Assembly: GCA_965249725.1 (NCBI GenBank)
Contig: CBDFMQ010000002.1
Coordinates: 768,001 to 832,000, forward strand
Origin: Longimicrobiales bacterium
Lineage (GTDB): Bacteria; Gemmatimonadota; Gemmatimonadetes; Longimicrobiales; Gaopeijiaceae
Length of the DNA stretch: 64,000 nt
Direction: 5' to 3'
Position 1 is the first letter of the stretch. Every line of letters starts with the position of its first letter. Below the pieces are notes generated by a model that saw only the letters and a list, made by a program, of their open reading frames with translations, searched no databases and was not told the DNA's origin. The translations under genes and the position numbers were made by a program. This document shows, one piece after another, positions 55,836-62,201 of this stretch.

Positions 55836-56059
55836 GTGGCCGCTGCGAGCGGAGGCTGGGATCCCGTGCGATTCGGGCTCTTCGCGATCTACGCGCCCTA
55901 TCTCCTGGTCCACGGCGCTTTGCTCCTGCGTCGAGTCTATGGCCTCAGTCTCCTCGGGGCAGCCCTCCGGATGCTTGTGCTGGCGCTCTGCTATCTCCTC
56001 GGCATCGGCTATTTCCTCGCGGGAATCGCTCGAGCTGCAGCATCGATGAGCGGTCTAAC
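55836..56059 (+). pseudogene. Cassette 1: 3' fragment of a membrane protein
   Basis: Hydrophobic FGLFAIYAPYLL..LLRRVYGLSLLGAALRMLVLALCYLLG; no cassette 5' end; the frame runs on through attC to 56150. Confidence 0.5.
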
Positions 56060-56152
56060 AAGCGATTGCTGCAGTCGCGGTGAGCATTCGACTCGCGCGC
56101 TTCGCTTGCGGTCGGCATCTTGGTCGCGCAGCAGAATCGCAATCCGTTAGGC
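56053..56152 (+). repeat. attC site 1
   Basis: GTCTAAC AAGCGATTGCTGC...GCAGCAGAATCGCAATCC GTTAGGC. Confidence 0.92.
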
Positions 56153-56240
56153 GTCATCGACCTAGGCGGCGGTGGCGGAGCCAGCCATTCGAAACGCGGG
56201 AAGAACTTTACGACCGCATGTTCTTTCTTTGGGGCGGAGC

Positions 56241-56753
56241 ATGGGTGTCAAGAACTTCCTAGTCGAAGGCGTTTCTTGTACCGGCAAAACCTCGGTCTGC
56301 GACGAGCTGCAACGGCGCGGCTACCACTGCATCCATGGCGACAGGGACTTGGCCTATTGGGGTGATCCCAAGACCGGTGAGCCTTTAGAAAGCTCAGCCT
56401 ACGAGCATTGGATCTGGGATGTCGATAAGGTCAGAGCTTTGGTGGCAGACCAAAGTCATGCGGCATCGTTCTTTTGCGGCGGTTCGAGGAATCTCGACCG
56501 ATTCATCGATCTGCTCGATGGAGTTTTTGTTCTCGAGGTCGATCTGGACACGCTGAACCGGCGTCTTGCCCTCCGACCAGAGGACGAGTGGGGCGGCCCA
56601 GCAAGCGACGGGGAATCCAATGCGCGATTGCAACACGCGACAAGAGAAGGCACTCCAGAGAACGCGATCACAATCGACGCCACGGCACCCATCGCACGGG
56701 TGGTCGACGCGATTCTCGGGAAATGCCAACTAGAGACTGCGAATGACGCCTAA
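56241..56753 (+). CDS. Cassette 2: P-loop nucleoside/nucleotide kinase-like protein
   Basis: EGVSCTGKT Walker A, IDATAP C-terminus; stop TAA lies in the attC R'' box. Confidence 0.85.
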   Translation: MGVKNFLVEGVSCTGKTSVCDELQRRGYHCIHGDRDLAYWGDPKTGEPLESSAYEHWIWDVDKVRALVADQSHAASFFCGGSRNLDRFIDLLDGVFVLEVDLDTLNRRLALRPEDEWGGPASDGESNARLQHATREGTPENAITIDATAPIARVVDAILGKCQLETANDA

Positions 56754-56847
56754 CAAGCGATTGCTGCAGTCGCGGTAAGCATCTAGCTCGCGCGCTTCGC
56801 TTGCGGTCGGCATGTTGGTCGCGCAGCAGAATCGCAATCCGTTAGGA
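56748..56847 (+). repeat. attC site 2
   Basis: GCCTAAC...GTTAGGA, near-identical to site 1. Confidence 0.92.
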
Positions 56848-56855
56848 AGCGCCTT

Positions 56856-57257
56856 CTACCGTTCTTGTATCCTCTCCCAGAAGCCGCGGGGAGAGAGAAT
56901 ATCGACGGGTAGGCTGTGGGCGGCGTCAAGAAAGTCGCGGTCCCCCGTAACGAGTACGTCCGCCGACCCCTCGAGCGCCTCGGCCAAGACTAGGACGTCG
57001 TCGGCGTCCCGGAGTTCGACGTCTGGTTCGGATGCGTGGGAGACGACCGCCGCCTCCCGCCGTAGGAACGATTCCGTCTCCTCGATCGTCGCCGCCGGCA
57101 CTCGCATCTTCTCCGAAAGCACTCGGGTCAACTCAGCCAATACAGTTTCCCCAAGGACGAGTTGGTGTTCGGCCACGACCACCGTGACTACGTCCGCGCA
57201 GATACCCCGAGTCGTAAAGGCACTGACGAGCACATTGGTGTCGAGAAAGACTCTCAA
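56856..57257 (-). CDS. Cassette 3: PIN-domain (VapC-like) toxin
   Basis: VFLDTNVLVSA, RDADD, LVTGDRDFL. Confidence 0.92.
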   Translation of the reverse strand: MRVFLDTNVLVSAFTTRGICADVVTVVVAEHQLVLGETVLAELTRVLSEKMRVPAATIEETESFLRREAAVVSHASEPDVELRDADDVLVLAEALEGSADVLVTGDRDFLDAAHSLPVDILSPRGFWERIQER

Positions 57258-57475
57258 GAAACGTCTCTGAAGACGTCCTCGTCCGTGAGATACCCGGCGG
57301 CCTCGGCAAAGGGCATGATCCGTCTCCGCAGATCCTCGAACTGTGCCACGGCGAGCTGACGTCGAAGCGCGTCACGTACGATCTCACTCCGAGAACGTCC
57401 GCTGCGCTTGGCCGCGCGCTCGAGCTGTTTCTCCAGATCGGGATCCAACCGAATTGTAAGTGCCGAGGTTTTCAT
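57254..57475 (-). CDS. Cassette 3: CopG/RHH antitoxin
   Basis: LTIRLD..L..AAKRSGRSRSEIVRDAL; overlaps the toxin start. Confidence 0.9.
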   Translation of the reverse strand: MKTSALTIRLDPDLEKQLERAAKRSGRSRSEIVRDALRRQLAVAQFEDLRRRIMPFAEAAGYLTDEDVFRDVS

Positions 57476-57502
57476 GTATTACAATGTATGACGTCCGGCG
57501 CT

Positions 57503-60693: not shown

Positions 60694-60791
60694 CTAACAA
60701 GCGATTGCTGCAGTCGCGGTAAGCGTTTGGCTCGCGCGCTTCGCTTGCGGTCCACATCTTGATCGCGCAGCAGAATCGCAATCCGTTAGCT
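60692..60791 (+). repeat. attC site 5
   Basis: AGCTAAC...GTTAGCT. Confidence 0.92.
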
Positions 60792-60853
60792 AGCGCCTAC
60801 GAGGTAGGGTCGACGGACCTTTCTGTGTACACACCGCGTATGTACATTCCGTG

Positions 60854-61150
60854 ATGTCCCACATCGAATTCGAGTGGGACCTGCAGAAGAACCGAGCCAA
60901 TCGAAAAAAACACGGCGTCTCGTTCGATGAGGCGTCGACGGCCTTCTATGACGAAGAGGGCCTGTTGCTGGACGATCCGGATCATTCTGAGAGCGAGGAT
61001 CACTTCATCATCCTAGGCGTCAGTTCCGCGCTCCGTCTTCTTGTGGTCGTCCATTGTTACCGTGGGGAGGACGCCACGATTCGAATCATCTCGGCCCGAA
61101 AAGCAGTGCCGGCCGAGGCCGCCTTCTACGAGAGTCACCAAAGGCCATGA
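60854..61150 (+). CDS. brnT: Cassette 6: BrnT-family toxin
   Basis: FEWD..KN..N.KKHGVSF.EA, IRIISARKA. Confidence 0.93.
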   Translation: MSHIEFEWDLQKNRANRKKHGVSFDEASTAFYDEEGLLLDDPDHSESEDHFIILGVSSALRLLVVVHCYRGEDATIRIISARKAVPAEAAFYESHQRP

Positions 61151-61377
61151 GAGCAGAGTACGATTTTTCGAAAGCCCGCAAGAATCCGTATGCGAAGCGA
61201 CTCAAGAAGCGCGTGACCATCCGCCTAGACACGCCGACCGTGGACTACTTCAAGCAACTCGCGGAAGAGACTGGGATCCCCTACCAAACCCTCATCAATC
61301 TCTACCTCAGGGATTGTGCGGCATCGAAACGGGAGTTGAACCTGGAGTGGCGGGGGGCGACCAGCGGCGCTGGCTAA
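61147..61377 (+). CDS. brnA: Cassette 6: BrnA-family antitoxin
   Basis: MRAEYDFS, NPYA, VTIRLD..VDYFK, GIPYQTLIN; stop lies in R''. Confidence 0.9.
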   Translation: MRAEYDFSKARKNPYAKRLKKRVTIRLDTPTVDYFKQLAEETGIPYQTLINLYLRDCAASKRELNLEWRGATSGAG

Positions 61378-61472
61378 CCAGCGATTGCTACTGTCGCGGT
61401 AAGCATCAAGCTCGCGCGCTACGCTCGCGGTCCACATCTTGGACGCGCAGCAGAATCGCCGATCCGTTATGT
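61372..61472 (+). repeat. attC site 6
   Basis: GGCTAAC...GTTATGT; interior identical to site 4. Confidence 0.92.
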
Positions 61473-61883
61473 GGCCTCGCTGTGGTCCTGCAGCAGAGCC
61501 ATGAAGGCCCGAGGCGTGACCACGTCTACGCCTCGCCACCCTGAGGCCTCAAGTAGGTGCCTGTCGCCAGACACCACGAGGGCCCCCACTTGTTGGGCAC
61601 AGATCATGAACTTGTCGTCGTCCGGATCGGTCGTGATGGATTCCGGAGCAGTCGCATCGGGCACTAGCGTTCCGTGCCCAACTACGGTCGCGAGAAGTTC
61701 GTCGTAGTTGAGAGTCGGGTGGCCTGCGCCCAGCCGATCGCAGGTCCGCAGGTACTCATCGAAAATCGTTGGCGAAAGAAACAGCTCGAAGCGCCCTTCT
61801 GCCCACGCTTCGAGCACACTCCGGGGCACGCCTCCGAAGAAGATCCCAGAAACCACCACATTGGTGTCTAGGACAGCCTTCAC
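61467..61883 (-). CDS. Cassette 7: PIN-domain toxin
   Basis: AVLDTNVVVSG, DPDDDKF, VSGDRHLL. Confidence 0.92.
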   Translation of the reverse strand: MKAVLDTNVVVSGIFFGGVPRSVLEAWAEGRFELFLSPTIFDEYLRTCDRLGAGHPTLNYDELLATVVGHGTLVPDATAPESITTDPDDDKFMICAQQVGALVVSGDRHLLEASGWRGVDVVTPRAFMALLQDHSEAT

Positions 61884-62143
61884 TCCTTCCTCCGGACCTC
61901 CCGAATAGCCCGATCGATATCGTCAGGAGTGAGTTCAGCCTTCTCAGCCGACTCATGAGCCTGGTCCAACAACGCCTTGAAGTCCGCCATTCTCGGTGGC
62001 TTGAGAGCTTTGAGCACGACGACGTCGCCCTCGCCCACAACGACGAACTGTGCCCCAGGCTCGAGTCCAAGTCGGTTTCGGATCTCTTCAGGAATGACGA
62101 CCTGTCCTCTGGAGGAGAGTTTTGTCGTGGCCGCACGTACCAT
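61880..62143 (-). CDS. Cassette 7: AbrB/MazE-family antitoxin
   Basis: KLSSRGQVVIPEEIRNRLGLEPG; GGAGG RBS; inverted repeat ATCTTA-TTGG-TAAGAT upstream at 62159-62174. Confidence 0.9.
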   Translation of the reverse strand: MVRAATTKLSSRGQVVIPEEIRNRLGLEPGAQFVVVGEGDVVVLKALKPPRMADFKALLDQAHESAEKAELTPDDIDRAIREVRRKE

Positions 62144-62201
62144 AATGCCTCCGGTTGGATCTTATTGGTAAGATAATGCGGAGACCAAGTACGGTCGACC
62201 C

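Follow-up and report, generated by a model that had tools for sequence, protein, structure and literature searches.

We analysed an array of gene cassettes in a 64,000-nucleotide stretch of DNA from a Longimicrobiales bacterium (assembly GCA_965249725.1, contig CBDFMQ010000002.1, positions 768,001 to 832,000 of the forward strand). We refer to this whole stretch as the window, to the genome that holds it as G000, to its contig as C3, and to the comparison genomes and records as G001-G519. The array contains six attC-type repeats and lies between the 5' part of rnr, the gene for RNase R, and an internally deleted insertion sequence (IS) that resembles the IS481 family. The features, in window positions, are:

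55148-55834, + strand: 5' part of rnr (RNase R), codons 1-229, matching positions 2-227 of 711 of TIGR02063
55834-55835, no strand: putative left breakpoint of a ~195 kb inversion, where rnr is joined to a cassette remnant; the reciprocal junction is at the end of an IS3-like element
55835-56052, + strand: truncated first cassette, with a 5'-truncated remnant of a hydrophobic open reading frame (ORF) of no family
56053-56152, + strand: attC 1 (100-101 bp repeat, boxes, arm pairing)
56241-56753, + strand: AAA_18 (P-loop kinase-like) cassette gene (PF13238, E 5e-8; start codon inferred)
56748-56847, + strand: attC 2 (repeat, boxes, arm pairing)
56856-57257, - strand: PIN toxin (PF13470), in one cassette (span 56856-57475) with the following antitoxin
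57254-57475, - strand, antisense to the array: ribbon-helix-helix (RHH) antitoxin (PF01402) of this toxin-antitoxin cassette
57503-57602, + strand: attC 3 (repeat, boxes, arm pairing)
57654-59771, + strand: cassette gene for a quinohemoprotein (pyrroloquinoline quinone plus cytochrome c) alcohol dehydrogenase (TIGR03075, 639 bits, above cut-off)
59859-59959, + strand: attC 4 (repeat, boxes, arm pairing)
59980-60693, + strand: cassette gene, 237 aa, of no Pfam or NCBIfam family
60692-60791, + strand: attC 5 (repeat alignment); in public runs X6 and X12 an IS481-like element is joined at 60684, just 5' of the site
60851-61377, + strand: BrnT-BrnA toxin-antitoxin cassette (PF04365, PF14384)
61372-61472, + strand: attC 6 (repeat, boxes, arm pairing)
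61467-61883, - strand: PIN toxin (PF13470) of the last cassette (cassette genes 61467-62143)
61880-62143, - strand: AbrB/MazE antitoxin (PF04014) of the last cassette
62202-63144, - strand: IS481-like element, internally deleted; 934 nt identical to the full copy at C3:8,216-9,543, then ~385 nt deleted, with the final 9 nt of the left end retained

The repeats are attC sites that separate cassettes

The six repeats are each 100-101 bp, with a mean column identity of 86%. An earlier, sequence-only reading of the window had picked out six imperfect palindromes, each opening with TAAC, closing with GTTA and carrying common arms. We located all six. Stop codons do fall in the site boundaries, as that reading had it: the TAA of TAAC at 56751-56753 and 61375-61377, and the TTA of GTTA, on the minus strand, at 61467-61469. 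Each site runs in the order AAC, 5-nt spacer, L'' box, variable centre, L' box, 8-9 nt spacer, GTT. The end boxes R'' (RYYYAAC) and R' (GTTRRRY) are present, with the AAC and GTT triplets in six of six sites; the four bases that flank the triplets fit the consensus in only some of them. A right (L'-R') spacer of 8-9 nt is common in the other attC sites that we saw in the phylum. For clinical attC sites, spacers of 5-6 nt are the norm.

The bottom-strand arms pair and leave two bases extrahelical, an A and a C that are six bases apart (A-N6-C). We aligned 14 sites, six from the window and eight from G000, G011 and G005. The named attC structure paired 94.9% of 294 cells, compared to at most 59% in slid registers. 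An A-N6-C attC site is excised by IntI1, IntI2* and SonIntIA (PMC3053210; what we say of this and the other cited papers applies to the parts of each that were available). Two results weigh against attC identity. None of the 14 aligned sites had a compensatory base change; that is, no pair was altered on both sides. Covariation was not seen because the family is too uniform. In addition, folding energy was weak, with bottom-strand z-scores of +0.2 to -2.6 that were below -2 in one of the six window sites. Folding energy was too weak to count as proof of attC structure; five of six sites were unremarkable. A scan of 55000-64000 against Rfam gave zero matches.

The match between the ends of a cassette was a stronger test of attC sites and cassettes than folding energy. 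For each cassette we compared the ten bases following GTT with the complement of an equal number preceding the next AAC. Scores for the five internal cassettes of the window were 9, 10, 9, 10 and 9 of 10. Throughout the genome, 14 of 18 adjacent attC pairs scored at least 8 of 10, compared to 4.0% of 707 non-adjacent pairs. Boxes, arm pairing and cassette-end matches together bear out the proposed attC architecture, and the RHH-PIN, BrnT-BrnA and AbrB-PIN pairs make the array as rich in toxin-antitoxin cassettes as had been claimed.

Copies of the repeat were found throughout G000 (42 matches in 16 clusters). Ten of the 16 clusters lay no more than 4 kb from a multi-copy repeat, where 1.8 would be expected; one such repeat is the duplicated contig start described below, and the other six clusters had none within that distance. 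On C3, the top strand of 33 of 39 attC sites was in the leading-strand sense. This attC family was present in 7 of 24 genomes of the same bacterial family and in none of 16 genomes from two other families, in agreement with the idea that it is lineage-specific. The host is indeed a member of the Gemmatimonadota, as predicted from the letters.

The genome has one integron integrase, far from the array

The sequence-only reading described the array as having no visible integrase. This is true of the window, and none lies to the left of the array, where the orientation of the sites would place it. The genome, however, has one full IntI (C3:1,028,977-1,029,906), from which the array was probably cut off by inversion. 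It turned up in the search for an IntI-type tyrosine recombinase that had been suggested as a check, with 335 bits against TIGR02249 (cut-off 265), and was the sole match above cut-off. It aligns to VchIntIA without a large gap (E 6e-59) across the integron-specific insertion (2A3V). The distance from the window array to IntI is ~195 kb (about 200 kb). The window array is a CALIN, a cluster of attC sites without intI nearby.

In G000, intI sits just downstream of a tRNA-Pro gene and is co-oriented with its own array of four attC sites of the window family. A GTTAGGA core between intI and the first cassette, seen by eye only, is a candidate attI core. Co-orientation of intI and attC was also found in G011, G018, G075, G084 and G155, and IntI itself was found in 10 of the 41 genomes searched (G000 included). 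Integrons have already been listed for Gemmatimonadota (PMC8618304). The layout is like that of inverted-integrase integrons of the Treponema type (PMC4889954), in which intI and attC also point the same way. Here, in contrast, six Longimicrobiales-family genomes have it, with an L'-R' spacer of 8-9 nt and with A-N6-C in place of the common T-N6-G as extrahelical bases.

We made two other observations on integron-related sequences in G000. A second copy of the 3' end of tRNA-Pro lies ~230 bp further downstream, ahead of intI (C3:1,030,300-1,030,610), and resembles the scar of an integrative element. A second array, in the opposite orientation, lies near a fragment of a XerD-like recombinase (C3:2,265,000-2,293,000).

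An inversion around dif probably separated the array from intI

We found that rnr is in two parts in G000. The 3' part starts at C3:1,019,313, on the minus strand, at the distal end of the intI array, where it directly abuts an IS3-like element at that element's left end. The RNB domain is found in G000 only at C3:1,018,285-1,019,256, and the orphaned 3' half has an internal stop. In contrast, rnr is whole in G001, G002 and G011, and by alignment no rnr base was lost in G000. Inverting back the 195 kb between the two junctions restores rnr and places the six window attC sites behind the four attC sites of intI, all in one orientation. dif, located with a consensus sequence, is at C3:914,787 (GC-skew peak at 914,771), and the arms of the inversion are 91 and 104.5 kb. 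Because the arms are nearly equal about dif, strand bias would have been preserved.

We compared the junction to four of 24 listed public runs (X1, X6, X11 and X12), each from a different study. A contig from X1 covers 54180-56079 with 0 differences and spans the junction between rnr and the array. Contigs from X6, X11 and X12 (at most 1 difference) match up to 55835 and then diverge, in X11 for 1,295 further letters. The base at which they diverge is where an intact rnr would cease to match, indicating that these three strains probably have an intact rnr.

We think it probable that the array was cut from a sedentary integron of inverted layout by this ~195 kb inversion and that it ends in an IS481-like element of an attC-targeting group. 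The array would be the distal part of the sedentary integron of G000, with its intI co-oriented with the cassettes and beside tRNA-Pro. An IS3-like element would have been inside the integron array, and a single inversion spanning dif would have exchanged DNA between the left end of this element and rnr codon 229/230. Read in this way from the sequence, the window array appears to be a CALIN of known type, with a recent and traceable origin. Both junctions, the intact rnr in relatives and the junction in one run are observations; from them we infer that the inversion was one event, and how it occurred. Two routes known in general for IS3 elements are compatible with the letters at the junctions. 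The IS3-like element may have made a one-ended attack on rnr. Alternatively, a copy of the IS may have inserted in rnr and recombined with the inverted copy in the array, and the left copy may then have been lost via a 4-base microhomology. In either case the window cassettes should remain excisable by IntI in trans.

Several findings count against this origin. The gene order of G001 is not simply collinear with the reconstructed state before inversion, so no outgroup confirms that the two halves of the array were once adjacent. Across the break, the cassette ends match at only 7 of 10 bases, and two other sites share this match. X1 may be the source sample of the genome, and the intact rnr of X6, X11 and X12 is deduced from the point at which their match ends, 55835. 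Synteny with G001, G002 and G011 was uninformative about the order before inversion; these genomes have rearrangements of their own and many IS copies.

We weighed three other explanations. The array could have formed in place, through insertion of cassettes into rnr by IntI at a secondary site, without ever having belonged to the intI array. GWT sites across genomes do accept cassettes from IntI (10.1101/2022.09.11.507474), and G000 has 16 clusters, six of them without a multi-copy repeat within 4 kb. However, there is no GWT at the junction, the first cassette has lost its 5' part, and the remainder of rnr does not follow the array: it lies at a distance of 195 kb, inverted, next to an IS end in the intI array. 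Formation in place is very unlikely in our view, and an IntI-mediated breakpoint was rejected because the break coincides with no attC and no GWT site. It is also possible in principle that the junction is an assembly error: the assembly is rich in IS copies and in 3 contigs, the first 9.6 kb of C3 is repeated elsewhere, and three of the four runs do not show the junction. Yet the two junctions are reciprocal and neither has a repeat on both sides, the X1 contig crosses the left junction with 0 differences, the inversion is nearly symmetric about dif, and the orphaned half of rnr has a stop codon. We regard such an error as highly improbable. Lastly, the repeats could be repetitive extragenic palindromic (REP) elements or miniature inverted-repeat transposable elements (MITEs) instead of attC sites. 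The sequence-only reading had named scatter over the genome as grounds for this, and the repeat is indeed dispersed over 16 clusters, with weak folding z-scores. But the end matches are specific to each cassette, the R and L boxes come with extrahelical bases, and four copies are directly behind intI. The copies mark cassette ends and are therefore dispersed arrays, and a REP or MITE nature is hardly conceivable. The 42 copies in 16 clusters had been overlooked in that reading, as had the broken rnr at the left boundary of the array and the IS481-like element at the right boundary.

The start of the contig (C3:1-9,650) repeats C3:747,065-755,915 plus the IS481-like copy of the window, so links drawn through C3:1-9,650 may be assembly effects. 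The IS3-like element has ten left ends in G000 (e.g. C3:1,022,430-1,024,000), with 7 fixed bases outside its TG...CA ends on both sides and a 3-bp duplication; G001 and G002 have a great many copies of it.

The element at the right end resembles IS481

The full IS481-like element is 1.33 kb and has a single ORF encoding a 402-aa DDE transposase with helix-turn-helix (HTH) domains. In an alignment of 36 sequences, D150, D210 and E252 were invariant and K259 (E+7) was nearly invariant. The best NCBIfam match was IS481 (NF033577) at 212.5 bits, below the cut-off of 224, and three relatives scored 190-205. The ISNCY_2 model (NF033594) gave 29 bits against a cut-off of 250. The right end of the element begins with TGA and the left end with GGT; TGT at both ends, a trait of the IS481 family (10.1101/2022.12.17.520857), was not found. 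Plasmid-borne relatives are annotated IS481. The element is thus like the IS481 family in its single ORF of ~400 aa, HTH domains, D150-D210-E252 triad, K at E+7 and best NCBIfam match. It differs in its score under the cut-off, a left end of GG and not TGT, a 3-bp duplication, and oriented, site-directed insertion.

The predicted structure of the transposase (predicted local distance difference test, pLDDT, 86) has a DDE fold resembling IstA, TnsB and retroviral integrases, with a C-terminal run of beta strands. No solved structure matched it by sequence, and no targeting domain was recognised in the one protein of the element. A single-sequence fold of the C-terminal domain (pLDDT 44) was not used. 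A transposase search in 35 genomes reached via integrase-search loci, mostly from other phyla, gave matches in 2.

IS481-like elements often insert about 11 bases before attC sites

We found that relatives of the element, ~39-100% identical, repeatedly have their left end 10-13 bases before the left end (R'' box) of an attC site. The left end is the transposase-proximal end. The elements are always antisense to the cassettes, and the attC is intact. For both full copies in G000, the left end precedes the TAAC of an attC by 12 nt, and none of the G000 copies is at dif. In G011, eight of nine copies are 11-12 nt before TAAC, and the ninth is before a near match.

We scored flanks by a fixed rule, at loci from searches of the family, the phylum and plasmids, with only some copies per genome scored. 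The unpublished genome G308 contributed only to the tally of one of these searches. In the genome sample (79 rows scored), TAAC was 4-14 nt out from the left end in 41 insertions, at 10-12 nt in 36 and at exactly 11 nt in 22. These 41 were spread over 30 of 46 genomes or records. By chance, 0.57% of random windows would have TAAC there, and five windows further along the same flanks had it in 0, 0, 1, 0 and 0 of 77-79. A paired L box and GTT were also downstream in 26 of the 41, according to a home-made attC scorer; this scorer lets through 13.5% of all genomic TAAC sites. The attC sites that are targeted come from many sequence families and differ widely beyond a CTAAC core.

A second sample, from metagenomes, had the same preference. 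Of 43 loci, 38 were run through the script and 24 were scorable. TAAC was at 10-14 nt in 21 of the 24 and at exactly 11 nt in 15. Of the three misses, two lie directly against the end of a further element of this IS481-like group. The unscored loci included one frameshifted copy and four distant relatives (at most 51% identity, other ends) without TAAC. Tandem stacking of IS481-like elements at one site was seen in two cases.

Target duplications of 3 bp were present in 21 of 27 copies that had both ends (0 of 2 in G000, 6 of 9 in G011, and 15 of 16 in G119). For the 15 copies scored in G119, the home-made scorer recognised no whole attC ahead of the left end. Nonetheless, the flanks in G119 resembled the left part of attC at offset 11: the summed score for this attC-left motif was 101, compared to 40.7 +/- 5.4 (maximum 62) in 5,000 draws. 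Insertions outside arrays retain the same short motif, and its presence at offset 11 without a whole attC points to reading of sequence.

Runs X6 and X12 have the IS481-like element joined at 60684, before attC 5, so that the BrnT-BrnA and AbrB-PIN cassettes are skipped. This state could have arisen by a second insertion followed by recombination between the direct copies.

A relative from the Acidobacteriota (46% identity; L281-L284 of G519) is inserted 8-10 nt before the motif TTGACAGC (core CTTGAC) in three of four copies. This motif resembles a sigma-70 -35 box.

How the elements may find attC sites

The position statistics support the targeting rule well. By this rule, an element of the group inserts ~11 bases before the left end of an attC, antisense to the cassettes, with a 3-bp duplication and the attC left intact. 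In the mechanism that we propose, its single DDE transposase would recognise a short double-stranded motif made up of the R'' box and the spacer, the element would travel along in the cassette, and the identical direct repeats left in arrays would favour loss of cassettes and splitting of arrays. There are also findings that speak against the rule or limit it. TAAC was absent from the expected place in 38 of the 79 scored insertions, and in G119 the TAAC itself was in only one of 15 scored flanks. Another 26 rows without a recognisable end and 6 at a contig end were dropped. The window copy is flanked by a truncated gene and not by an attC. On a quick tree of the transposases the habit was patchy, with 15 label changes, and shuffles were as low in 5 of 200; a weakly supported branch had 7 non-targeting rows, including two plasmid rows. 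A single origin of attC targeting was not shown by this tree.

It is possible that the elements home to attC through a bound protein (IntI or a host factor) or a folded hairpin and not through reading of the sequence by the transposase. The targeted sites do differ widely beyond the CTAAC core, and the element encodes one protein with no recognised targeting domain. Homing of this kind is among the proposals for ISAba32 at Xer sites, a question that was left open (10.1101/2022.12.17.520857). Three findings argue otherwise: a degenerate motif is retained at an unchanged offset in the G119 insertions for which no hairpin was scored downstream, the Acidobacteriota relative uses a related core, and G001 has attC-adjacent copies while IntI was not found in that genome (90% complete). 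We regard such homing as rather unlikely. The elements might also not be targeted at all, either moving as gene cassettes with their own attC or surviving in arrays because they are harmless there. Both full copies in G000 and three of nine in G011 lack a target duplication, and many other IS types are found in arrays. However, identical copies are found before different attC sites and flanks, the 3-bp duplication is present in most copies with both ends, and survival bias cannot yield a peak at 11 nt in one orientation. There is little chance that this explanation is correct.

Going beyond the rule itself, we see about an even chance that this widespread Gemmatimonadota group is an undescribed class of integron parasite. 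A lone DDE transposase, with neither an RNA guide nor a helper, would read a short double-stranded motif (the R'' box and its spacer) at the left end of attC and insert in fixed orientation ~11 bases before it. Because insertion spares the attC, the element could ride along inside the cassette. The identical direct repeats that it seeds in arrays would promote cassette loss, even of toxin-antitoxin cassettes as in X6 and X12, and array splitting, scattering one integron into many CALINs. Related elements may have retuned this offset reader to other motifs.

Relation to known systems

Formation of CALINs by IS-mediated rearrangement is already known; the attC-targeting rule of the IS481-like elements appears to be new among the mobile elements that target attC. 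Cury et al. (2016) list IS-mediated rearrangement (mechanism iv) among the sources of CALINs (PMC4889954). As in their case, the window has an attC cluster without an adjoining intI, an IntI elsewhere in the genome, and an IS next to the cluster. Where they give a statistical association with IS, both breakpoints here can be read to the base, a core gene (rnr) is broken, the inversion is balanced about dif, and the junction varies between populations of one species. The array itself is ordinary. It is a rare case in which one can follow, down to single bases, how a CALIN arose and compare this between populations alive today, and it supports the proposal that IS-driven rearrangement makes CALINs. 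In addition, a natural strain tolerated the loss of RNase R.

The habit of the IS481-like elements carries more weight than the array. Elements that target attC have reportedly been treated by Tetu and Holmes (2008) and Post and Hall (2009). The IS1111-attC group (PMC11187229) and the group IIC-attC introns (PMC3001079) are likewise mobile elements with attC as their target. Both insert within the site, as RNA-guided DEDD recombinases or as retroelements. In contrast, here a DDE transposase joins this short list, inserting outside the site and leaving it whole and usable.

The closest parallel is the ISAba32 subgroup of the IS1202 family (10.1101/2022.12.17.520857). Like the elements studied here, ISAba32 is an IS with one gene, for a DDE transposase, and is related to IS481. 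It inserts next to a site for a tyrosine recombinase and not within it, at a fixed distance with its left end toward the site, and it can stack. The two differ in target (dif/pdif, for XerCD, for ISAba32 and attC here), in offset (5-6 and ~11 nt), in duplication (5-6 and 3 bp) and in the E+7 residue (Q and K); the low score of the transposase under the ISNCY_2 model (29 bits) also sets it apart from the IS1202 family. The IS481-like elements offer a one-protein system for asking how a transposase selects a target at a fixed distance and orientation, which the ISAba32 paper leaves open. They are also a possible route by which arrays protected by toxin-antitoxin cassettes lose cassettes and fragment. 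We found no report of an IS481-type element inserting beside attC in the literature searched (including the available parts of PMC3971601 and 10.1101/2025.06.18.660453), with most subscription journals, ISfinder and TnPedia outside the search; an entry for the element in ISfinder or TnPedia would lower its novelty.

Other cassettes and mobile elements

The first and last cassettes of the window array are incomplete. The remnant at the left matched no family; its matches were confined to Atlas clusters without a name, and a search of G000 for its 5' part found nothing. The last cassette (AbrB-PIN) is missing its own attC in the window, and its left end best matches the attC at C3:9,556. We found no target duplication joining the window IS481-like copy to that attC; the 3-bp flanks differ. 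The link between the two is a lead only, because the end match is of 8 bases and lies inside the duplicated contig start. A promoter scan of the array gave no sigma-70 match above chance, and the listing for the stretch included no RNA holder.

The alcohol dehydrogenase cassette is unusually long (2.36 kb), and its ends match at 9 of 10. The complete quinohemoprotein of 705 aa is large for an integron cassette, and contigs from all four examined runs cover the gene.

Several other elements are associated with attC sites. An IS110-like element of ~1.5 kb (DEDD-type ORF by eye) is found at the GTT of the attC right end, antisense to the cassettes, in 10 places in G011 loci (L055:10723, 13607 and 18989; L056:2976; four copies in L058; L059:5623; L060:2804), and is also listed for G002 (L063) and a metagenome (L290). 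An IS1111-like element (C3:754,409-755,915) has subterminal inverted repeats and breaks up the L' arm of attC sites, with similar ends near C3 5,600, 752,800 and 2,273,700. A non-coding insert of ~70 bp inside the attC L' box is present three times in identical form (C3:2,595,290-2,595,360, 2,596,580-2,596,650 and 2,601,830-2,601,900), with similar starts at C3:757,900 and G011 L056:15500. It is possibly a MITE of an attC-targeting element.

Elsewhere in the window, a lone right-end remnant of an IS256-family element is present at 48281-48314 and also at C3:2,232,073. The gene for the Era GTPase opens with about eleven 12-bp repeats (DTKP/ETKP) at 52157-52340.

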